Source: an uncultured bacterium
Lineage (GTDB): Bacteria; Oederibacteriota; Muellerivitia; Muellerivitales; Muellerivitaceae
DNA length: 64,000 nucleotides
Direction: 5' to 3'
Assembly: GCA_964624625.1 (NCBI GenBank)
Contig: CAZUXW010000006.1
Span: 13,896-77,895 of the forward strand
Shown: positions 45,071 through 59,177 of the stretch, piece after piece
How the letters are laid out: the number at the start of each line of letters is the position of its first letter
Numbering within the stretch: the stretch's first letter is position 1
Notes under the pieces: generated by a model
Told to the model about the DNA's origin: nothing
The model's input: the letters and a program-made list of their open reading frames with translations, nothing else
Databases searched by the model: none
Translations under genes and position numbers: made by a program

Positions 45071-45403
45071 TCAATCCTTTGGGGGTATGTTTTTAGGCAT
45101 TTTTACCATGTCCATACCGCATTCCGGGCACTTTCCAGGCTTATCCGCCTTGATATGGCACATGGGACAAATCCAGGAATCCTTTTCCACTACCGAGGGC
45201 GAAGCTTTTTTATCGGCCTTGGATTTTTTCATGGATTTCATTTTCTTGGACACACCGAGGGCTCCTGGGCCCTTTTTCAAATTGGTTCCGGCGGTCTGGC
45301 TGGTTGCTTGATTTCCAACCGCTTCCTCGGCCTGAGCGATGGACGCGGCCATCAACGAACACGCCAATAACAGGGCGGCCATGGACTTTAGGAATCTTTT
45401 CAT
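45071..45403 (-). CDS. Secreted small protein with heavy-metal-binding domain (HMBD-like)
   Basis: Signal peptide, Lys-rich linker, WICPMCH..KPGKCPECGMDM. Confidence 0.8.
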   Translation of the reverse strand: MKRFLKSMAALLLACSLMAASIAQAEEAVGNQATSQTAGTNLKKGPGALGVSKKMKSMKKSKADKKASPSVVEKDSWICPMCHIKADKPGKCPECGMDMVKMPKNIPPKD

Positions 45404-45519: not shown

Positions 45520-45891
45520 TCAGCTGGGGGACGAGATTTTTTTCAGGTGGGCGGCCAACAGTTCCAAATCCTCTTCCTTCATGGCTAAAAAGTGAATACC
45601 AGCCCCCGTCTCGTTCGCCCACGCGACCTCGGCGAAAGCCGAGATGGGATTCATCCGCTCCGGAATGGAAACCTTCAGGCTTAGGAGCGTCCCGATTTTC
45701 AAGGCTTGATCCGCCACGATATACATACCGCCCAAGCTCGTGTCGAGGGTCTCGGCGTTCTTGGTTTTTGCCCCCAACTCCCGGATATTTTTGATCTCTT
45801 CCTGGTCGTCCATCAACCGGTAGGAGACTGGAATTTTCGTGGGGATCCGGGAATGGGCCCTTTTATCTAAAAACATATCCGCTTTAGGCAT
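45520..45891 (-). CDS. Single-domain PilZ protein
   Basis: DKRAHSR and DTSLGG motifs. Confidence 0.85.
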   Translation of the reverse strand: MPKADMFLDKRAHSRIPTKIPVSYRLMDDQEEIKNIRELGAKTKNAETLDTSLGGMYIVADQALKIGTLLSLKVSIPERMNPISAFAEVAWANETGAGIHFLAMKEEDLELLAAHLKKISSPS

Positions 45892-46019: not shown

Positions 46020-46292
46020 TTATTTTTTAATCTCCAATTCCATGCCGCACTTCGGACATTTGCCATCCGCCGTCTTGGGGCCGCTGTAATCCCCCATCGG
46101 GCAAACCCAGACCGCCATCTCTTTTTTCGGACCTGCCGATTTTTTCTTGATCTTGTTAGCCTTATGTTTCATGACAGGAGTCGAGCCAGCGGCCGGTCTG
46201 GAAATGCCTTCCATTTTGCCCAGGTCATCCGCCCCAACCTGAGAAACCGTTAACAATCCCATTCCCATCAACCAACACAATAATTTTTTCAT
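46020..46292 (-). CDS. Secreted small protein with heavy-metal-binding domain (HMBD-like)
   Basis: Signal peptide, Lys-rich linker, WVCPMGD..GKCPKCGMEL. Confidence 0.8.
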   Translation of the reverse strand: MKKLLCWLMGMGLLTVSQVGADDLGKMEGISRPAAGSTPVMKHKANKIKKKSAGPKKEMAVWVCPMGDYSGPKTADGKCPKCGMELEIKK

Positions 46293-46356: not shown

Positions 46357-49300
46357 TTAACCCACTTTCTTCACCAGCCTCCAAAACCAGCCGGACTTGT
46401 TTGGATTCACCTCGGTGTTCCATTTCCACATCGTGAATAGGACCGGGTAGACCAGCAGTTCCAATAGGAAGGAGGTAAAGACCCCTCCCACCATGGGCGC
46501 GGCGATGCGCTTCATGACATCGCTTCCCACCCCTGTGGAAAAAAGGATGGGAACTAATCCGAACCAGGCGGCGGAGACCGTCATCAATTTGGGGCGGAGC
46601 CGCTTAACGGCCCCCTCCATGACGGATTCCTCCAAGTCCCCGAGGTTATTGAGCTTTCCCCCTTCCTTTGATTTTTTATACGAAAGATTGAGGTAAAGCA
46701 ACATCACAACCCCCGTCTCGGCGTCCAATCCCGCCAAGGCGATCATGCCCACCCACACCGGCACCGAGGTGTTGTAGCCCAATAACCACAAGAGCCAAAC
46801 GGCCCCCACCAATGAAAAGGGCACTGCCATAAGAACAATGAGGGTTTCAGTAATGGACTTCGTGTTGAGGTGAATCAGGAGAAACACGATTAGAAGCGTC
46901 AAGGGAATCATGATCCGGAAACGCGCCGCCGCCTTCTCCATGTTCTCATATTGCCCGCTCCAGGCCAGGCTGGTTCCCGAGGGAAGCGCCACTTTTTCCG
47001 CCAACAACTTCTTGGCCTTCCGGACATAGCTGCCGATGTCGACTCCCTCGGTGTCCACGTAAATATATCCGGCCAAAAGCCCGTTCTCGTCACGGATCAT
47101 GCTGGGTCCAAGGGTCAAACTTACTTCCGCCAATTGGGCCAATTGAACCTTACTTCCGGAGGGCGTGGTCACCAAAACATGACGTATCTTGTCCACGTCA
47201 TCACGGTAGTCCTTGGCGAAGCGGACGTTCACCGAATATCGGCCCCTTCCCTCGACGGTCGTCGTGACATTGTCCCCTCCGATGGCCATCTCAATGATTT
47301 CGTTGACTTCCTCGAGGGTCAACCCATAACGGGCGATTTGGTCCCGAAGGGGCTGGATATCGATGTAATAGCCTCCTGTCACCCGCTCTGCGAAAACACT
47401 GCTGGTTCCCGAAAGGCCCCTTAAGGCCTTCTCAACCTCAATACCGACTCCCTCTATCGTCGCCAGGTCCCCGCCGACGACCTTGATGCCGATGGGTGTT
47501 TTCACCCCGCTGGTCAGCATATTGATCCGGTTGATGATGGGCATGGTCATGGCGTTGGCGTAGCCGGTGAATTGAAGCGCCGCGTTCATGTCGTGGACGA
47601 GCTTCTCCTGCGTCATCCCCCCGCGCCATTGGCTTTTAGGCTTCAGCCAAACGGTGGTTTCCACCATGGAAAAGGGAGCCGGATCCAGGGATGTCTCGGC
47701 CCGCCCCGCTTTCCCAAAAACCCTTTCCACTTCGGGGAAGGATTTTAAGACCTTGTCCTGGGCCTGTAATACCCTCCCTGCCTCCGTCACCGAAATGCCC
47801 GGGAGGGTTGTGGGCATATAAAGGAGCGAACCTTCCCAAAGCGGCGGCATATATTCACTGCCAAGCCTGGAGAAGGGAATGAAGGAGGCCGCGATCAACC
47901 CGATCGCGGTTAAAATAACATTGGCCCGGTTCCTCAAGGCCCACCTCGCCGGACCTTCATAAATTTTTCCAAAAACCCGGTTGAGGGGGTGCTTTTCCTC
48001 CGAAAGCATCTTGCCCCGGAGAAAAACGACCATCAGTACCGGCGTAAGGGTAATCGCCAGGAACGCGGCAAAAAACATGGAAAAGGTTTTCGTATAAGCC
48101 AGCGGGGAAAAAAGCCGGCCGTCTTGGCCTTGTAAGGCAAAAACCGGAAGGAATCCCACGGTGATAACCAGTAACGTGAAAAACAAAGAGGGGCCCACTT
48201 CCTTGGCCGCGTTCAATACCACCTGGACGCGGTCCCCTACCCTCCCGCCCTTTTCCCATTCGGAAAGCCTCGTGCAGGCGTTTTCCACCATGATGATGGA
48301 GGCGTCCACCATGGCCCCAATGGCGATGGCGATCCCCCCCAAACTCATGATGTTGGAGGAAACCCCCAGATATTTCATGGTGATGAAGGACATGAGGATG
48401 GCCACGGGAAGGGTCAGGATTATCACCAAGGCCGACGGCAGGTTCCATAGAAAGACCAGGCACACCACCGAAACCGCCACCGCCAGCTTGATCAGCTCGT
48501 GGGTCAGGGTCTTAATGGAGTCGTCAATGAGTTCCGACCTGTCATAGACCGGCACGATTTCCACGCCCGGCGGCAGGGAGGGTTTCAACTCCTCGATCTT
48601 TTGTTTTACCCTCTCGATGACTTTCAAGGCGTTCTCGCCGTAACGCGCTGTGACGATCCCCCCCACCACCTCGCCTTGGCCGTCCAGTTCCGCCACGCCG
48701 CGGCGCACATCCGGCCCGATTTGAACCTTCCCAATATCCCGGACTAAAACGGGGACTCCCTGCTTGTCCCTCCCCACCGCCACCTTCTCGATATCCTCAA
48801 TGCCTTTCAGATATCCAAGGCCCCGAACCATGTACTCGGCGCCATTGATGTCCAGAAGCCTTCCTCCTACCTGCCGGTTGGAACTGCGGATAGCCTCGAT
48901 CACTTGGGAAAAAGTCAGGTCATAGGCGGCCAAGGCATTGGGATTGATTTCAACTTGGTACTGCTTCGTCATCCCGCCGACCGTGGAGACTTCCGCCACC
49001 CCCGGAAGGCTTTGGAGGAGGTATCGAAGATTCCAATCCTGGTAGCTTTTCAAATCCGCCAAGCTATTCTTCCCGCTCTTGTCCACGAGGGCATATTGAT
49101 ATACCCATCCCACACCGGTGGCGTCCGGACCCATTTCCACACTGACCCCCTGGGGCAGGGAATTTTGCACCTTCGAAAGGTATTCCAAGACCCGGCTGCG
49201 GGCCCAATAGACGTCGGTCCCGTCCTCAAAAATAATGTAGACATAGGCGTATCCGAAATCCGAGAAGGCGCGGATCGCCTTCACTTTCGGCGCTCCTAAA

Positions 49301-49515
49301 AGGGCCCGGACAATGGGATAGGCAACCTGATCCTCCAGGATGTCGGGGCTTTTCATCCACTTGGCGTAAATCACGACCTGGGTGTCCGAGATATCGGGGA
49401 TAGCGTCCAGGGGGATATTCCTCAAGGCCCACAGGCCCCAAGCGATGAGCGCGACAATGGCCAAGGAAACCATAAACTTGTTTTTTCCACACCATTCAAT
49501 GAGTTTTGAAGTCAT
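46357..49515 (-). CDS. cusA: CusA/CzcA heavy-metal efflux RND permease
   Basis: PLDAIPDISDTQV, GPDATGVGWVYQY, GAMVDASIIMVEN, Met triad region YMPP/MPIINRINML, RLRPKLMT; ATG 49515. Confidence 0.95.
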   Translation of the reverse strand: MTSKLIEWCGKNKFMVSLAIVALIAWGLWALRNIPLDAIPDISDTQVVIYAKWMKSPDILEDQVAYPIVRALLGAPKVKAIRAFSDFGYAYVYIIFEDGTDVYWARSRVLEYLSKVQNSLPQGVSVEMGPDATGVGWVYQYALVDKSGKNSLADLKSYQDWNLRYLLQSLPGVAEVSTVGGMTKQYQVEINPNALAAYDLTFSQVIEAIRSSNRQVGGRLLDINGAEYMVRGLGYLKGIEDIEKVAVGRDKQGVPVLVRDIGKVQIGPDVRRGVAELDGQGEVVGGIVTARYGENALKVIERVKQKIEELKPSLPPGVEIVPVYDRSELIDDSIKTLTHELIKLAVAVSVVCLVFLWNLPSALVIILTLPVAILMSFITMKYLGVSSNIMSLGGIAIAIGAMVDASIIMVENACTRLSEWEKGGRVGDRVQVVLNAAKEVGPSLFFTLLVITVGFLPVFALQGQDGRLFSPLAYTKTFSMFFAAFLAITLTPVLMVVFLRGKMLSEEKHPLNRVFGKIYEGPARWALRNRANVILTAIGLIAASFIPFSRLGSEYMPPLWEGSLLYMPTTLPGISVTEAGRVLQAQDKVLKSFPEVERVFGKAGRAETSLDPAPFSMVETTVWLKPKSQWRGGMTQEKLVHDMNAALQFTGYANAMTMPIINRINMLTSGVKTPIGIKVVGGDLATIEGVGIEVEKALRGLSGTSSVFAERVTGGYYIDIQPLRDQIARYGLTLEEVNEIIEMAIGGDNVTTTVEGRGRYSVNVRFAKDYRDDVDKIRHVLVTTPSGSKVQLAQLAEVSLTLGPSMIRDENGLLAGYIYVDTEGVDIGSYVRKAKKLLAEKVALPSGTSLAWSGQYENMEKAAARFRIMIPLTLLIVFLLIHLNTKSITETLIVLMAVPFSLVGAVWLLWLLGYNTSVPVWVGMIALAGLDAETGVVMLLYLNLSYKKSKEGGKLNNLGDLEESVMEGAVKRLRPKLMTVSAAWFGLVPILFSTGVGSDVMKRIAAPMVGGVFTSFLLELLVYPVLFTMWKWNTEVNPNKSGWFWRLVKKVG

Positions 49516-49528
49516 ACCAATCCTCTTT

Positions 49529-50599
49529 TCACTTCGTTTCGGCGAATGCCGCTTTAAGTTTTGAATCCGCATCGATGAGGAAAAGGGCCCCATCCACGAC
49601 TTGGTCGCCTTCCTTCAAGCCCGAGATAATTTCCCAAAGATCGTTTCCCTCATATCCCGTCAGAACGGGTTGGGGCGTGAAATTTCCCGGTGAAGTTTGA
49701 ATAAAAACATACCTCTGGGTCCCCGTATCCATGACCGCCGTGGGGGGGACCGCCAACCTGGGAGCGGTCCCAGCTTGGATTTCAACATTGGCGAAAATCC
49801 CTGGCGGGCTTCCCTTGGGCAGGCTGATTTTGACGCGGGTCACCCGCGATTGCGTCTGATCGTAGGGATAGACCAGGGCAACAAGCCCCGTGACGGGACT
49901 GCCGGGTCCGTTCAGGGAGGTGATAACGGCTTTTTGCCCGACCTTGACGAAGGGAAGGTCCAGGGCGTAAACATCCGCCACGACATAACGGGCGGTTGAA
50001 CGCGAAGGTTCCCGCGCCGTGAAATCGCTGGCCAGGACCGCGAAATCCCCCGCCCCCCCCGCGAATCGTCCAATGGTGCGGATGGCGCGGGTCAGGGGTG
50101 CCTTTCGGACCGATGCGAATTTCACATCGATCAACTGTTCTTTATAGGCGCTGATATGGATGGGGACTAATCCCCTTATTTCGTCCGGCGCGTCTTCACC
50201 CCTTGAATGGGCCTCTTCCTCATAAACCGGGACATAATCCATGCCCATTTCATCCTTTTCCGGCTTGCCGCTATGTTGGGCCGGGTTCATGGGATTGGCC
50301 CAAAATTTTATTTTTTTCGCCGGCACCGGATTTTTTTTCGTTTGCGGGGGAGCGGGAGTCACCCCAGCTTCGTCCAAAGGAATCAGCGTCATTCCGCAAA
50401 TGGGACAGTCCCCCGGCTTGTCCCTCCTTATTTGATGATGCATGGAACAGGTATAGATGGTTTTTTTGGCCTGGTTTTGTTCTTGTTTTGGTTGGCTGCA
50501 GCCAACCGCCGTCAACAGGCCCGACAGAACCGCCGTCGACAGGAACAACGCGAGAAGGCCTTTCATAATAAGTCCCGAAAATTTATTTGAGGTTTTCAT
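49529..50599 (-). CDS. cusB: CusB-like RND periplasmic adaptor, internally shortened
   Basis: YTCSMH..CPICGM HMBD, NPM..DEMGMDYVP Met motif, VVADVY..GQ barrel, GLKEGDQVV..FLIDADS; lipoyl/hairpin segment missing. Confidence 0.8.
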   Translation of the reverse strand: MKTSNKFSGLIMKGLLALFLSTAVLSGLLTAVGCSQPKQEQNQAKKTIYTCSMHHQIRRDKPGDCPICGMTLIPLDEAGVTPAPPQTKKNPVPAKKIKFWANPMNPAQHSGKPEKDEMGMDYVPVYEEEAHSRGEDAPDEIRGLVPIHISAYKEQLIDVKFASVRKAPLTRAIRTIGRFAGGAGDFAVLASDFTAREPSRSTARYVVADVYALDLPFVKVGQKAVITSLNGPGSPVTGLVALVYPYDQTQSRVTRVKISLPKGSPPGIFANVEIQAGTAPRLAVPPTAVMDTGTQRYVFIQTSPGNFTPQPVLTGYEGNDLWEIISGLKEGDQVVDGALFLIDADSKLKAAFAETK

Positions 50600-51848
50600 G
50601 ATTATCTCCTTTTAACTCACCGACTTGATAATCCAGTTCCGCCAAGGCCTTTCCATAATCCGCCTTGGTTTGATAGTAATTCGTCAGGGTTTCCACATAG
50701 TTGTTGTAGGTTTCCACGTAATCCGGAAGGGATATTTGCTCATTGCGGTAAGCCGTTTGGGTGACAGTCCAGGCCCGATCGACCTGTTGGATCAGCCGGC
50801 CATCCTCGTAAAGCTTGAGCAACCGCCAGGCCGATTGGGCGTTGACAAAGGCGTCTTCCACCATGTGGATGACCTCATTTTGTTTTCCCTGGAGATCAAA
50901 TTGGGCGGCCGCCAACTCATCGGAGGCGGCTCCGGAAGCCTGCATTTGTTTGGCGGGAAAAAACAAGGGTAGGGTCACCCCCAACCGGAAGCCGTAATTC
51001 GAGAAGGACCCGTTGGCCGGATCCCTCACGCCGGACAGCCATAGGTCGAAATCGGGCAAATATTCAAGGGAGGCCATCTTTTGTTGAGCCTCGCGGGATT
51101 CGATCGACCTGCGATAAACCATGATCTCGGAATTTTGCCGGAGGGCTCTTTGGACCAAGTCCTCTTCCTTCGAGGATAAGGGCGGCAAAACCGGCTCCCC
51201 TTCCAACCGGTAGGCGGTGAAATGGGGGAGGCTGAAAAGGTGGTTCAGGTTGTATTGGGATATTTTGAGCGCCCGGCTGTTGGTGATGAGCTCATTGACC
51301 GCTTTGGCGGTTTCCATCTGCAGGCGCACGGCCTTGACCGAGAGCCACTGCCCGGTCAATTCCTTAGCCTGGAGGATCTGGCTCAAGTTTTTCCACCGGG
51401 CCTGGGCCTCCTGAAGGATCGCGTCGACCTTTTGGCGGTAATAAAACTCCCAATAGGCCTGTTGGGCCTGCAGCAGGATGGACCGCTGGACCCCGGAGGA
51501 TTCGGCGCTCAATCTTTTGGCTTCTGCGCCCAGCATATCCGCCTTGGCGATTCCCTTTCCGGGAAAACCCAGTTTCTCCTCCACCATCCACATTTCCATT
51601 CCCGGGTTGGTGGTGTCCACCATGACCATGGGATCCTCCGGGAAGAGGGACGGCAAAACCTGTTTCCCGGCCGCCTGGGCCCTCGCGCTGGCGGCGTGGA
51701 TATGGGGGTTGCCGGAGAGGGCCATTTCCTGGGCCTTTGGCAAGGTCAGGACGATGGTAACAGGGGCCAGGGTTTCCTGGGCCGAACCCTGCCGGAGTCC
51801 CATCAGCCATCCGATGATTAATAAACCTATCAGTTTTAAGCTCTTCAT
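50583..51848 (-). CDS. TolC/CusC-family outer-membrane efflux protein
   Basis: Signal peptide, two OEP repeats (LSGNP, YLPDF), helical heptads; first gene of the efflux operon; ATG 51848 is 8 nt from AGGAG. Confidence 0.9.
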   Translation of the reverse strand: MKSLKLIGLLIIGWLMGLRQGSAQETLAPVTIVLTLPKAQEMALSGNPHIHAASARAQAAGKQVLPSLFPEDPMVMVDTTNPGMEMWMVEEKLGFPGKGIAKADMLGAEAKRLSAESSGVQRSILLQAQQAYWEFYYRQKVDAILQEAQARWKNLSQILQAKELTGQWLSVKAVRLQMETAKAVNELITNSRALKISQYNLNHLFSLPHFTAYRLEGEPVLPPLSSKEEDLVQRALRQNSEIMVYRRSIESREAQQKMASLEYLPDFDLWLSGVRDPANGSFSNYGFRLGVTLPLFFPAKQMQASGAASDELAAAQFDLQGKQNEVIHMVEDAFVNAQSAWRLLKLYEDGRLIQQVDRAWTVTQTAYRNEQISLPDYVETYNNYVETLTNYYQTKADYGKALAELDYQVGELKGDNHENLK

Positions 51849-51853
51849 GGTCA

Positions 51854-51958
51854 TCACTCCTTTTCAGTGGAAATGTCCCCCGTCCCTTCAGCGAAGGAGG
51901 ACGCAAAACGGCGACAAGCCGGTTCTTTTGAACCAGCTTCCACAATCAAAAGGAGTGA
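51854..51958 (-). promoter_or_regulatory. Structured RNA leader sequestering the tolC SD
   Basis: Minus strand TCACTCCTTTT (51958-51948) is perfectly complementary to AAAAGGAGTGA (51864-51854, the tolC SD); two internal hairpins, GCTGGTTC-aaaa-GAACCGGC and CGTCC..GGACG. Confidence 0.7.
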
Positions 51959-51959
51959 A

Positions 51960-52313
51960 TCAGATTCTTAAGGGAAGAAGACCTGGGGGAGAGGAACAGC
52001 TGGAGTAATAAAATGAGGACGCCTCAGCCATCTTGGGGATGGAGTGGCAGGACAACGACAACCGGCCCGCCTGGACAGCGGGAGCGTCAAGATGCGCCGG
52101 TGAAACGGAAACAGAAGATTGATCCATCACTTTACAAAGGGGGCTGCTGGATTTGGCTTTATGGCAGCAATCCATCTTGCCGGACATGTGCGCCATGGCG
52201 CAGGCTTGGGTGGAGGCGGACATACCCTTTTGGCAAAGACCGCAAGGCGTCAGGGCCACCAGGACCCCGGCGATAAGCAACATCCGATAGAGTAGGGATA
52301 ATGTTTTACGCAT
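51960..52313 (-). CDS. Cys/Met/His-rich membrane-targeted leader protein (DUF2946/CruR-like)
   Basis: Hydrophobic N-terminus, CGLC, CAMAHM..CCH, C-terminal SSPP seven codons before the stop; directly upstream of the efflux operon. Confidence 0.6.
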   Translation of the reverse strand: MRKTLSLLYRMLLIAGVLVALTPCGLCQKGMSASTQACAMAHMSGKMDCCHKAKSSSPLCKVMDQSSVSVSPAHLDAPAVQAGRLSLSCHSIPKMAEASSFYYSSCSSPPGLLPLRI

Positions 52314-52456
52314 GACGAGAGTCTACACCCTTTCCGGGAAAATAATCTATTGAGGCACTCGAACAACCTAAGCGATGGACGGCCCCTCCCTTGATCCATA
52401 TCAAGGATAGTCTGAAAAGGTTACGGACGACTATGATTTGCGTCAGGTGGATTTGT

Positions 52457-53092
52457 TCAATCTTTTCCTTGTTTCCTGGCAGCCAGGGCCCCCACGGCCG
52501 TACCGATGAGGATAAGGGAAAGCCAAAGCAGGAAACGGTTGTTGCCGATCGAAACGCCGTACTTACCATCCACAAATTTTCCCAGGAGCAAGCCTAAAAA
52601 GCCTCCCAGACCCGAGTAAAAGAAAATCACCAGCAATGGGCCTAATGAAAAATACTTCTGGCTGGTCCCTAAAACCGGCTGGATTAAGGGAAAATAGATG
52701 AAAATAAACAAAGCTCCCAGCACCAGCCAGTGGTTCATCAAGGACCCTGTATAGGGGCTTCCGGAAAACTGGAGCCAATAGGTGATCCAAAGATAAGCCG
52801 AAACCCCCAGGCCCCAGCTTAACAGAATACTCACGGGCCACATCACCAAACCCAGGAACCCATCCGCCATCTTCCAGCGGTAAACATATAGGAGGGGATA
52901 GGCGATTAAAAAGACGATGGCGTTATAGTGAAAGTGGAGGGACCAAAGGGGATTGGCGTTGGGGTAGCGGAGGATGTGCAAAAAACCGATCAAGGCCATA
53001 CCCTCCCAAAACAAAAGCCGCAACAGGGAGCGTGAGTTATCGGAACCTTTGGCCACTTGAACCCTTTTCCGCGAATTTGCGTAAATCATCAC
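52457..53092 (-). CDS. Uncharacterised multi-pass membrane protein
   Basis: About 6 hydrophobic helices; paralog of the next gene; start uncertain. Confidence 0.7.
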   Translation of the reverse strand: MMIYANSRKRVQVAKGSDNSRSLLRLLFWEGMALIGFLHILRYPNANPLWSLHFHYNAIVFLIAYPLLYVYRWKMADGFLGLVMWPVSILLSWGLGVSAYLWITYWLQFSGSPYTGSLMNHWLVLGALFIFIYFPLIQPVLGTSQKYFSLGPLLVIFFYSGLGGFLGLLLGKFVDGKYGVSIGNNRFLLWLSLILIGTAVGALAARKQGKD

Positions 53093-53235: not shown

Positions 53236-53865
53236 TCATCCTTTTCGGGTCTTGTTCCCGAACCAAACCACCGCCCCGACTCCCACCAAAACGAAAATAA
53301 TCCAGATCAGGGCCCGAATGTCCGCGTCGCCGAAAAACATCCCCCACTTGGTGTCCAGGGTCCGTCCCAGGTAAAAGCCGCCCACCGATCCGCTCACGGA
53401 ATCGGAGATCATCCCCACCGAAGCCCAGAAATTAAAATTAACCGTGCTAATTCCCCATAGATGTTCCAGGAAGAAGAAGTAATCCAAGACGTAAAAGGGC
53501 GCCATGAACATCCAGTAATTTTTGAAGATCAGGAAGCAGGACGTTTCACCCAAGAGAAATTTGGTGGCGTAAGCGACATAGGCGATCCAAACAAAACTGC
53601 AAATCATCATCACTAGCCGAAGGAAAAGGCTAAGAGGCGAGATCAGGGCTTTCAACACCGGGGGGAGCTTCAATTGGCTGAAAAAATAAATGACCGGGTA
53701 AAGAAGGATGAAGACAACCGAGTTGGCCAAAAAATAAAGCGGGGTCGGGTCGTTGGCAGGAGCATATTGGAGGATATGCAGGAGCCCCACGATGCCGAGG
53801 ATTTCCCAGAGGATGAACCTGGAAAAGGGCGGGGGTTGGAATATCGGCGTCGCTTCCTTGGTCAT
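53236..53865 (-). CDS. Uncharacterised multi-pass membrane protein (paralog)
   Basis: Shares WExxxxxGxLHILxY..AN and GGFxLGxxxDxKxG motifs with 52457-53092. Confidence 0.7.
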   Translation of the reverse strand: MTKEATPIFQPPPFSRFILWEILGIVGLLHILQYAPANDPTPLYFLANSVVFILLYPVIYFFSQLKLPPVLKALISPLSLFLRLVMMICSFVWIAYVAYATKFLLGETSCFLIFKNYWMFMAPFYVLDYFFFLEHLWGISTVNFNFWASVGMISDSVSGSVGGFYLGRTLDTKWGMFFGDADIRALIWIIFVLVGVGAVVWFGNKTRKG

Positions 53866-53866
53866 C

Positions 53867-54202
53867 TCACTTCCCTTTTCCCGCTTTGGATTTTTCCGTT
53901 ACATGGCCGCATTTGGGGCAATGGTAAATCATCACCCATTCTTTTTTCGCTTCGTCGAATATCATCTCGGCCGCGCTCACCCTAAAGCCGCACCAGGTAC
54001 AATGCGCCTTTTGCCATCGAGGACGGCTGGTTCCCCACAACAACCCCATTCCCGCGGCCAGAAGCAGGCAGAGGGACGGCACTACTATCCTTGCCGTAAA
54101 GCCGTAGTGCAACCACAAAAGACTGGTGCCCATCAAAAATGCCAAAAACCATAGAAGGAAAAACTTTTCCCATGGGACGCGATTGAGGAGTGGTGGGGTC
54201 AT
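53867..54202 (-). CDS. Small membrane protein with C-terminal zinc ribbon
   Basis: Two TM helices, then CTWC..x23..CPKC. Confidence 0.65.
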   Translation of the reverse strand: MTPPLLNRVPWEKFFLLWFLAFLMGTSLLWLHYGFTARIVVPSLCLLLAAGMGLLWGTSRPRWQKAHCTWCGFRVSAAEMIFDEAKKEWVMIYHCPKCGHVTEKSKAGKGK

Positions 54203-58131: not shown

Positions 58132-58554
58132 CTACCGCAAAAAATCCCGGTAAAGCATGAAATAAACGACCACGCCCGTCATGGAAACATAGAGCCAGAT
58201 TGGGTATGTGACGCGAGCGATTTTTTTGTGCTTCTCAAAATCCCCCTGCAAGGCCCGCCTGAGCGTCACGATGGCCAGCACCGGCACCAAAACCGCGAGA
58301 ATCGTGTGGGTGGTAAGGATGAAAAAATAAAGCTGACGGACCCATCCTTGGCCCTGGTAGTAAATGATTCCCGCCAAGGCGTGATGGATCAGGTAGGAAG
58401 CCAGGAAAATCACAGAAACCACGAAGGCCGTGACCATGCAAAAACGGTGGGCCTTTTTGTTCCCTTGGCGGATGAAGCGATAACCCATGATCAATAATAG
58501 GGCGCTGAGGGAATTAAGGCAGGCGTTGAAGGCCGGCAAGGTGTCGAGGGTCAA
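58132..58554 (-). CDS. DUF420 membrane protein
   Basis: NACLNSLS, HRFCM, FLASYLIHH, HTILA, PIWLYVSMTGVVVY. Confidence 0.88.
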   Translation of the reverse strand: MTLDTLPAFNACLNSLSALLLIMGYRFIRQGNKKAHRFCMVTAFVVSVIFLASYLIHHALAGIIYYQGQGWVRQLYFFILTTHTILAVLVPVLAIVTLRRALQGDFEKHKKIARVTYPIWLYVSMTGVVVYFMLYRDFLR

Positions 58555-59177
58555 GATTTGCTCCGGGAACTCATCAGGAATTTGACGTCTTGATTGAGCT
58601 TCTTCAAATCCTCCTCCTGCTCGCCGTCATAAAGGCCGCGGACCACTCCTTTGCCGTCCACCAAGATCATCCTAGTGCTGTGGATATAGTCAAAACCCGG
58701 CACGGCCTCCTCATTCGGCATAGCCGTCACCTTGAAACCCTCCCGGATCACCCGGTAAAGGTCGGCCTTGGGACCGGTCAGGAAAAACCATTGGTTTTCG
58801 TCGGCCTTCAGGTCCGAAGCGTAGGTTTTTAATCCCGCCACCGTGTCCCTTTCCGGGTCCACCGTAAAGGACACCAATTTCAAGTCCTGGTTGCCTTTCC
58901 ATTGGGTTTGGAGATGCTTCATTTGCTGGCTGAGGAGAGGGCAGGAACCGGCGCAATGGGCGAAGATAAAATCCACCACCCAAACTTTTCCCTTCAACTC
59001 GGAACTGGAAAAAACCCGCCCGGTCCGGTCCTGGAAGGAAAAATCCGGCGCCTGCATCACGTTTTTTTGCAGCTTGTCCGAGTGACGGGAACCCATCACC
59101 TGGTAGCCGGTTACGACCAAGAGCAGCAATGCGATCCCGGCGGCCAGCCAGGGCAGGGGCGCGTTGGAATTCCTCAT
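58551..59177 (-). CDS. SCO1/SenC copper chaperone
   Basis: DFIFAHCAGSCP (CxxxC), SFTVDPERD, HSTRMILVD. Confidence 0.92.
   Translation of the reverse strand: MRNSNAPLPWLAAGIALLLLVVTGYQVMGSRHSDKLQKNVMQAPDFSFQDRTGRVFSSSELKGKVWVVDFIFAHCAGSCPLLSQQMKHLQTQWKGNQDLKLVSFTVDPERDTVAGLKTYASDLKADENQWFFLTGPKADLYRVIREGFKVTAMPNEEAVPGFDYIHSTRMILVDGKGVVRGLYDGEQEEDLKKLNQDVKFLMSSRSKS

Follow-up and report, generated by a model that had tools for sequence, protein, structure and literature searches.

The 64,000-nucleotide (nt) stretch of DNA analysed here, called the window below, comes from an uncultured bacterium (contig CAZUXW010000006.1, positions 13,896 to 77,895) and carries a Cus-type metal efflux operon, tolC-cusB-cusA, headed by a small open reading frame (ORF) of 117 codons which is referred to as the leader ORF. 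Both lie on the minus strand, as do all the features of the window described below, and coordinates are those of the window unless another locus is named. The leader ORF occupies 51960..52313, with its ATG at 52313-52311 and its TGA stop codon at 51962-51960, and its assignment is based on homologues and on pN/pS, the ratio of the proportions of nonsynonymous and synonymous differences. It translates as MRKTLSLLYRMLLIAGVLVALTPCGLCQK...CAMAHM...MDCCHK...SSPPGLLPLRI. One nucleotide separates its stop codon from the sequence TCACTCCTTTT (51948..51958), which is the complement of the Shine-Dalgarno (SD) region of the tolC-like gene, AAAAGGAGTGA (51854..51864), and is therefore called the anti-SD. 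This text is concerned with the leader ORF, with the anti-SD:SD helix that follows it, and with the way in which the two may control the pump.

The first gene of the pump codes for an outer-membrane efflux protein of the TolC/CusC type (50583..51848; Pfam OEP, E = 4e-23). Its likely start is the ATG at 51848 (MKSLKL...), 8 nt after GGAG. This codon is preferred to the GTG at 51857 and to the ATG at 51854, since the homologues keep (A/G)TG at this position while the nearer upstream ATG and GTG codons are variable. The next gene (49529..50599; Pfam HMBD and HlyD_D23) codes for a CusB-type periplasmic adaptor with an N-terminal HMBD domain, whose matches to the CusB and CzcB subfamilies of NCBIfam are below the cut-offs. 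The third (46357..49593; TIGR00914, 1109 bits) codes for a CusA-type heavy-metal permease of the resistance-nodulation-division (RND) class. Among solved structures, the best match of the pump is E. coli CusA, with 1083 bits, compared to 521 bits for the zinc pump ZneA. Judged by these matches, tolC-cusB-cusA is a Cus-type heavy-metal efflux (HME-RND) system, and copper and silver are its predicted substrates.

A word-indexed search with the leader ORF returned 30 homologous proteins, nearly all of 114-118 amino acids (aa). When all 1.84 billion cluster representatives were read with an HMMER profile, only 24 proteins were found, all full-length and of similar size apart from two weak ones, and there was no bridge from the leader-ORF family to other families. 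Scans of genomes and metagenomes located 33 leader-ORF loci, mostly in metagenome-assembled genomes labelled candidate division FCPU426. Altogether, the family has 67 distinct members of about 114-122 aa, mostly from this candidate division, and nearly all of them head Cus-type RND operons. The tests of the RNA helix described below use 19 distinct loci of a main clade, a second clade is represented by 6 loci, and the other counts refer to 24-26 distinct loci. Pfam and NCBIfam scans of the window ORF and of all 30 family members assigned no family, and the window ORF has no Pfam match at E ≤ 1. The pN/pS ratio is 0.49 in the signal region, 0.48 in the Cys block, 0.82 in the middle and 0.39 over the last 12 codons. 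The leader ORF is a genuine conserved gene under protein-level selection.

The 30-sequence alignment shows four zones: a basic and hydrophobic N-terminus, the sequence ALTPCGxC followed by a block rich in Cys, His and Met, a variable middle, and a nearly invariant C-terminus. Residues 1-21 (52251..52313) resemble an export signal, with an MRK...R n-region and a hydrophobic helix, and this segment is conserved in the alignment. The AlphaFold2 model of the leader peptide has a mean pLDDT of 53 and is confident only in the helix of residues 2-21 (pLDDT 82-85). The peptide is thus predicted to have an N-terminal export signal, and the disordered, non-globular prediction for the remainder would be consistent with a peptide that acts while it is nascent.

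A CxxC motif (C24-G-L-C27, 52233..52244) directly follows, within ALTPCGxC; L21, T22, P23, C24, G25 and C27 are invariant in all 30 aligned sequences. The presumed metal-binding region continues with the block C38...M-D-C49-C50-H51...S-P-L-C60-K-V-M-D-Q-S-S67 (52113..52202), in which C49, C60, M63, Q65 and S67 are invariant in the same alignment and C38, C50 and H51 are conserved in at least 90% of the sequences. The spacer that comes next (residues 68-105, 51999..52112) is variable in sequence and fixed in length: its pN/pS of 0.82 is close to neutral, C60 lies 57 ± 1 residues from the C-terminus in 62 of 63 members, and C60 is separated from the SP of the C-terminal motif by 45-47 residues in 56 of 61. 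A 38-residue middle that is nearly neutral and yet fixed in length to ± 1 residue has the signature of a ruler between a sensor and the ribosome rather than that of a folded domain.

Three other readings of the peptide were considered and rejected. A lipoprotein is at odds with ALTPC, whose proline at position -1 is unfit for a lipobox, and the sole LPAM_1 match is very weak (E = 0.82, in one member). A second transmembrane segment in the spacer finds hydrophobic residues in some homologues; the spacer of the window protein is not hydrophobic, and no such segment is present in the AlphaFold model. As for a precursor of the RiPP (ribosomally synthesized and post-translationally modified peptide) or methanobactin type, no MNIO/DUF692-type maturase was found among the neighbours tested.

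The C-terminus of the window protein, C-S-S-P-P-G-L-L-P-L-R-I (51963..51998), is a candidate arrest or pause peptide, with the family consensus SPx(R)(A/G)PLxLRI. All 67 family members end with L-R-I followed by the stop codon, 64 of the 67 have the SP, and the last 12 codons, with their pN/pS of 0.39, are the most constrained region of the leader ORF. All three codons of LRI vary synonymously (Leu TTA, CTA, CTT or CTC; Arg AGA, AGG, CGC, CGG or CGA; Ile ATC or ATT), and the constraint on LRI therefore acts on the peptide. Two consecutive prolines (PP) occur within the last 15 residues in 46/67 members and R[AG]P in 34/67; none of the 67 has RAPP, RGPP or RAGP. The window protein has P109-P110, so that it would pass the rule-based PP filter of a published survey (PMC9973294), but PP is not a family-wide feature.

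The final codons of the window ORF, TTA AGA (51963-51971), are rare in the genome, where TTA makes up 6.7% of the Leu codons and AGA 3.8% of the Arg codons. The TTA-AGA pair is kept in 10 of 25 distinct loci, and five more keep AGA or AGG together with CTA or TTA; the second clade has the common codons CTC CGC at this position. Most loci of the main clade have kept rare codons here. At all 25 distinct loci, the leader ORF ends with TGA or TAA and never with TAG; its stop codon can thus be read by release factor 2 (RF2), whereas TAG is used by about 14% of the window ORFs of at least 150 aa. This stop usage is only a hint, because the 25 loci are related.

In the window, TCACTCCTTTT (51958..51948) and AAAAGGAGTGA (51864..51854) are exact reverse complements of each other. 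They form exactly 11 base pairs (bp), flanked by U-U and G-G mismatches, and are 83 nt apart; the energy of the duplex is -20.8 kcal/mol. An exact inverted repeat of at least 11 nt arises in 43 of 20000 shuffles of the region. The 161 nt from 51990 to 51830 fold in RNAfold with -56.7 kcal/mol (z = -3.36, and none of 200 shuffles is as stable). In this minimum free energy (MFE) fold, the anti-SD is the 5' arm and the SD region the 3' arm of a closing outer stem, which has two hairpins inside. A preliminary description of this DNA, made from the sequence alone, had placed a 117-aa ORF directly upstream of tolC-cusB-cusA, with an exact 11-nt anti-SD one nucleotide after its TGA, a spacing of about 85 nt, two hairpins in between, and about 24 nt from the PP to the anti-SD. 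The ORF, the anti-SD and the hairpins are indeed found there, the spacing comes to 83 nt, and the last distance to about 24-25 nt.

The helix is conserved in the main clade. The intergenic regions of its 19 loci measure 83-150 nt, and the downstream gene (TolC, CusB or YtkA-like) lies at 77-144 nt in this clade. In 19/19 loci, the 20 nt that follow the stop codon pair with the 22 nt that precede the next start, with energies from -12.6 to -22.5 kcal/mol. Of 200 shuffled sequences per locus, no more than 6 form as good a duplex in 17 loci, and 11 and 25 do so in the other two. The outer stem is part of the MFE fold in all 19 loci and begins 0-3 nt past the stop codon, so that a ribosome which reaches the end of the leader ORF must open it. 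Covariation was tested for a 13-pair helix on a MAFFT alignment (A2) of the main-clade intergenic regions. In this alignment, 84.7% of the helix cells are paired, and shifting the 3' partner by 1-3 columns lowers this to 45-66%. Changes on both sides are seen in 5 of the 13 pairs (for example U-A to C-G in five sequences), and there are 12 double-change cells where column shuffles give 3.4; none of 500 shuffles reaches 12. The anti-SD:SD helix is evolutionarily conserved, with compensatory changes. The synonymous sites of the adjacent ORF are near saturation (pS about 0.65), and the conservation of the intergenic region therefore reflects selection and is unlikely to result from phylogenetic inertia. 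The loci have a shared synteny (dinB, three small membrane proteins, the ORF, tolC-cusB-cusA). The ORF and its anti-SD also behave as a module: they stand directly before cusB in L027 and before a YtkA-like gene in L008, and in both cases the anti-SD matches the SD of the respective downstream gene. A scan against Rfam gave nothing beyond chance level: its matches, with E of about 0.9 and above, are to unrelated families from eukaryotes or archaea.

The hairpins enclosed by the outer stem differ in their conservation. Inner hairpin 1, GUGGAAGCUGGUUC-AAAA-GAACCGGCUUGUCGC (51911..51943, -17.5 kcal/mol), has a counterpart in 26/26 distinct loci of both clades, where it begins 12 to 23 nt after the stop codon, with energies from -7 to -20 kcal/mol. 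Its conservation was assessed by detecting hairpins in each sequence and by shuffles; RNAalifold predicts no pairs on a MAFFT alignment of hairpin 1, because the sequences of its arms are too divergent to align. Inner hairpin 2 (51875..51902, from the MFE fold of the window) is variable and is absent in L001, L012, L013 and L031. Hairpin 1 was also considered as an intrinsic terminator. This was rejected for the window, in which a terminator scan does not call it and its tail, CGTTTTGCG, has four T in nine positions, and is only partly tenable in the homologues, of which about 10/26 have a T-rich tail behind the hairpin.

The second clade (L004, L006, L010, L021, L023 and L026), whose peptides end with TSPPKPLVLRI, has kept the peptide and hairpin 1. 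Its six loci have spacers of 160-173 nt with no consistent anti-SD pairing. The conservation of the peptide and of hairpin 1 thus extends further across the family than that of the anti-SD helix, and the conserved, compensatory pairing which the preliminary description proposed to look for in homologues exists in all 19 main-clade loci but not in these six. In L004, L006 and L021, an extra gene of 114 aa which has no Pfam match sits between the ORF and tolC.

No SD is found upstream of the leader ORF. A -10-like hexamer, TAGACT (52320..52325), ends 6 nt before its ATG, and is preceded by a weak -35-like hexamer, TAGATT (52344..52349), a poor match to the TTGAC(G/A) that the homologues show 17-18 nt before the -10 hexamer. 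This hexamer has the form TAnnnT and ends 6-7 nt ahead of the start codon in about 22 of 24 distinct loci. The usual spacing between a -10 element and the transcription start is about 7 nt, and the predicted start of transcription therefore falls on the A of the AUG. From these consensus matches, the leader ORF probably heads its own transcript, as a leaderless mRNA. Farther upstream, about 105-125 nt from the ORF start, most of the homologous loci have a conserved palindrome, TGAC-N4-(G/A)TCA followed by TAT or TAG (52434-52445 in the window). It sits just past the stop codon of the upstream gene and could be an operator or a 3'-end element of that gene.

The logic in which metal turns expression ON has already been demonstrated for CutF, from the cutFOG operon of Rhodobacter capsulatus (PMC9973294; bioRxiv 10.1101/2025.02.05.636593). 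CutF combines a Sec signal with a CxxxC motif and a proline motif at its C-terminus, and a stem-loop shields the SD of cutO; copper prolongs the stalling, upon which the stem-loop melts (PMC9973294; bioRxiv 10.1101/2025.02.05.636593). The commonest downstream neighbour of CutF-like genes is a gene for an RND outer-membrane efflux protein, and SilD and CusD are named among them (PMC9973294). Like CutF, the leader ORF is the small first gene of an operon for copper detoxification and has a predicted Sec-type N-terminal signal, a Cys motif about 45 residues before a C-terminal motif (45 in CutF and in CruR, 45-47 here), and an intergenic stem-loop which masks the SD of the next gene. It is also likened to CutF in that metal would turn expression ON and the peptide is thought to act only while nascent. 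There are several differences. The leader-ORF family has no detectable sequence homology to CutF, its SPx..PLxLRI ending runs to the stop codon whereas CutF has PPP, and it precedes an RND efflux pump instead of a multicopper oxidase. Its anti-SD lies 0-3 nt past the stop codon and its ORF is probably leaderless. The CxxC of the leader ORF comes directly after the signal segment, so that the cysteine found about 45 residues from the C-terminal motif is C60. CutF is from Pseudomonadota; the host of the leader ORF is candidate division FCPU426.

We propose that the leader ORF encodes a CutF-like, cis-acting nascent-chain metal sensor, which would pause the ribosome at or near its stop codon and thereby unmask the SD of the Cu(I)/Ag(I) RND pump. 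We give this reading a probability of about one half. The leader ORF would be transcribed from its own promoter, probably into a leaderless mRNA, and its product would consist of an export signal, a metal-binding region rich in Cys, His and Met, a spacer of 45-47 residues, and the SPx..PLxLRI sequence up to the stop. The anti-SD:SD helix of 11-13 bp, clamped by the inner hairpins, would keep the translation of the pump genes OFF. A ribosome standing on the stop codon or on the codons just before it would hold the anti-SD in its mRNA channel, which would leave the SD free for as long as the ribosome stays, and the helix would re-form upon its departure.

A ribosome with the stop codon in its A site protects about 10 nt beyond the stop, and its helicase lies about 11-13 nt from the P-site codon. 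By these footprint and helicase distances, a ribosome with Ile117 in the P site encloses UCACUCC, which pairs with the SD core GGAGUGA. The dwell of the ribosome would depend on the C-terminal peptide, on the rare TTA-AGA codons and on the stable structure downstream. With the exit tunnel taking up about 30 residues and the translocon about 17, the end of the Cys block would be just outside the membrane when the ribosome is at the stop; the authors of the CutF work made the same argument about tunnel and translocon spacing. Metal bound to the already exported Cys block would lower the force that pulling or folding exerts on the chain and lengthen the dwell, as has been proposed for CutF, and the pump would be made when periplasmic copper or silver is high. 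The LRI-stop ending, the rare codons, the stable structure, the fixed spacer and the match of 45-47 residues suggest that the dwell time at the stop is the regulated variable.

The preliminary description had envisaged two states, in which a ribosome stalled at the PP leaves the SD closed and one that reaches the stop codon frees it. The second of these fits the anatomy of the locus. The first finds no comparative support, because the invariant residues (LRI-stop) lie downstream of the PP, which is itself present in 46/67 members, with RAPP, RGPP or RAGP in 0/67. A pause at the last codons or at the stop fits better than a stall at the PP.

Several points weigh against a CutF-like sensor. We infer the pausing of the ribosome at LRI-stop, the export of the peptide, the binding of metal and the ON direction. 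The C-terminal motif matches no known arrest sequence, and has neither RAPP nor PPP; RAP-L and RGP-L have no proline for the A site, which arrest of the RAPP type requires. The stop context, TGA-T, is not among the known weak terminators. Since the second clade has no consistent anti-SD, the function of the peptide does not depend solely on the helix. The independent covariation events are few, because the loci are mostly orthologous and from one lineage. The prediction of a disordered peptide is weak evidence, because the AlphaFold model rests on a shallow alignment. In addition, the palindrome at 52434-52445 could be the operator of a conventional transcriptional control.

This last point also bears on a rival explanation, which we regard as possible but less probable: plain translational coupling, in which the leader ORF codes for a stable, exported Cys-rich accessory protein (a chaperone like CusF or CzcI, or a regulator acting in trans), the helix sets the stoichiometry, there is no regulated stalling, and control by metal is transcriptional or absent. 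In its favour, the Cys block is conserved and an export signal is predicted, and any terminating ribosome would open the helix transiently. CzcI sits ahead of czcCBA in the same way, and is cited in the CutF paper as a suggested metal-sensing regulator which has no proline motif. The palindrome could then be the operator, and the anti-SD is missing in the second clade. This explanation is difficult to square with the constraint, which peaks in the last 12 residues (pN/pS 0.39) with an invariant LRI-stop, and with a near-neutral middle of 38 residues that varies in length by only ± 1. Moreover, the peptide has no predicted globular fold, and rare codons are kept at the end of the ORF.

The control could also be exerted on transcription, either in the manner of CruR or by attenuation. 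Rho-dependent or intrinsic termination in the intergenic region would then be governed by where the ribosome stands at the end of the ORF, hairpin 1 would be the terminator, and the pairing of the SD would be secondary. The presence of hairpin 1 in 26/26 loci of both clades, with a T-rich tail in about 10/26, is in line with this view, and the 160-173-nt spacers of the second clade recall the 162-nt Rho-dependent intergenic region of CruR. We nevertheless consider it unlikely. Hairpin 1 of the window has no proper U-tract and is not called by the scan, and 16 of the 26 loci have no T-rich tail. Judging from footprint sizes, a ribosome bound at the stop reaches about 10 nt and cannot block a hairpin core which starts about 20 nt downstream, and the covariation between anti-SD and SD is left unexplained. 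As for a chance complementarity beside a spurious or non-functional ORF, nothing favours it except that CT-rich strings complementary to an SD are short. It is effectively refuted by the 67 distinct homologues with conserved length and motifs, by the covariation of the helix and by the shuffle statistics.

A pump-linked parallel to the proposed sensor is offered by SilD and CusD of Cupriavidus metallidurans (silDCBA and cusDCBAF), which are listed as CutF-like (PMC9973294). Both are small ORFs directly upstream of the gene for the outer-membrane efflux protein in a Cu/Ag RND system, as the leader ORF is. SilD from plasmid pMOL30 has 131 aa, is encoded 72 nt upstream of silC, and ends with ...PRPPPRPLAILHCCFRI. 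The stop codon that follows pairs, together with the next bases, with the SD region of silC (MFE -38 kcal/mol, z = -3.42), and SilD, as a positional analogue, may use the same stop-adjacent anti-SD design. Like the leader peptide, SilD has a hydrophobic N-terminal segment immediately followed by a Cys, and an internal LC(Q/K)...Q(D/S)S block. The endings are similar, ...PPLAILHCCFRI and the stop codon in SilD compared to ...PRGPLALRI in the leader-ORF family. The consensus ending of the SilD family is RAPPPPLxILHCCFR[ITN], with a true RAPP about 12 residues before the stop, whereas RAPP occurs in 0/67 members of the leader-ORF family. At the silD-silC locus L034 (19940-20419, minus strand), SilD ends with RPPPRPLAILHCCFRI and the stop codon. 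To our knowledge, the regulatory role of SilD has not been tested so far.

The preliminary description had related the leader ORF to the DUF2946 family, which includes CruR. This membership is not supported: the hidden Markov model PF11162 (DUF2946) matches 0/30 leader-ORF family members even at E ≤ 10. Profile-profile comparison by hhalign of the leader-ORF family (A1) with the SilD family (A4, a 37-sequence alignment) gives a probability of 0.2% (E = 0.27), and the comparison with SilD alone is negative as well. SilD itself has no PF11162 match, and 2 of 80 SilD relatives carry this domain. On the tests applied, the leader ORF would thus work like a sensor of the CutF/SilD type without being a DUF2946 member.

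CruR (Bp2923) of Bordetella pertussis, which does belong to DUF2946, is turned OFF by copper and controls an uptake transporter; it acts by Rho-dependent termination of transcription over a 162-nt spacer, with a RAPP arrest motif, and the regulation is independent of its signal peptide (PMC9426467). The leader ORF shares with CruR its position as an upstream ORF at the head of a copper-related operon, a CXXC motif, an export signal (present in most members of the CruR family) and the spacing of 45 residues (45-47 here) to a C-terminal arrest motif near the stop. The preliminary description had presented the metal-ON direction as a new logic, the inverse of that of CruR; the demonstration with CutF precedes it (PMC9973294; bioRxiv 10.1101/2025.02.05.636593).

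With SecM, MifM and VemP, the leader ORF would have in common an exported nascent chain whose C-terminal arrest takes place over the 5' arm of a stem that sequesters an SD. These peptides differ in that they sense secretion or insertion and control components of Sec or YidC, have no metal-binding motif, and use other arrest motifs. With TnaC and SpeFL, it shares conserved residues that reach the stop codon, and only RF2-readable stop codons are found in the 25 distinct leader-ORF loci. TnaC and SpeFL sense small molecules in the exit tunnel, act on Rho-dependent termination, have 24-34 aa and are not exported.

The genes around the operon were also inspected. Upstream of the leader ORF are two paralogous multi-transmembrane proteins of about 210 aa which have no Pfam or NCBIfam match (52457-53092 and 53236-53865) and a 111-aa protein with a C-terminal CxxC...CxxC resembling a zinc ribbon (53867-54202). 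Across FCPU426 genomes, these three are syntenic with the ORF and the cus operon, and are flanked by a dinB-like gene and the ORF. On the strand of cusA and just downstream of it, there are genes for two small HMBD proteins (46020-46292 and 45071-45403) with that of a PilZ-domain protein between them (45520-45891); these genes may be further members of the efflux operon. About 6 kb upstream lies a gene for a copper chaperone of the SCO1/SenC family (58551-59177), so that the neighbourhood has more than one copper-related function. No regulator of the CusRS, MerR, CsoR, ArsR or CopY type was found among the ORFs tested within about 10 kb.

The metal-ON logic of CutF was already known, and the occurrence of CutF-like ORFs ahead of genes for RND outer-membrane efflux proteins has been described bioinformatically (PMC9973294). 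What is new here is a family unrelated in sequence, from an uncultured phylum, with an LRI-stop ending, a covariation-supported anti-SD which abuts the stop codon, and a probable leaderless start. We found no literature in which such a leader upstream of an RND pump was tested. A bolder view, which we put forward only tentatively and hold to be doubtful as a whole, is that the leader ORF represents a class of nascent-chain metal sensors that evolved independently, or diverged beyond recognition. Its SPx..PLxLRI sequence would arrest the ribosome at the stop codon, it would be translated from a leaderless mRNA, and it would provide the main and perhaps only metal-responsive control of the Cu/Ag pump in FCPU426. 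Its SD-masking helix, fixed to the stop codon and supported by covariation, would then be the first of its kind for such a sensor.

The control of metal efflux pumps is commonly ascribed to two-component systems or to regulators of the MerR or CsoR type. As the work on CutF and CruR has shown, an exported peptide can serve as the sensor while it is still nascent, and the survey of CutF-like genes suggested that such arrangements are commonest ahead of RND pumps. We know of no pump-linked nascent-peptide sensor that has been dissected. The present locus is a compact and comparatively well-supported example, with a sensor of 117 codons, a helix of about 11-13 bp, well-defined targets for mutation, and natural variants which have kept or lost the helix. 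Should LRI-stop turn out to cause arrest, the few regulatory arrest peptides known so far would gain a new motif, and the "45-residue ruler" between a metal site and the ribosome would have been reached by families unrelated in sequence. The locus also gives a rule by which the genes of this orphan family from an uncultured phylum can be annotated.

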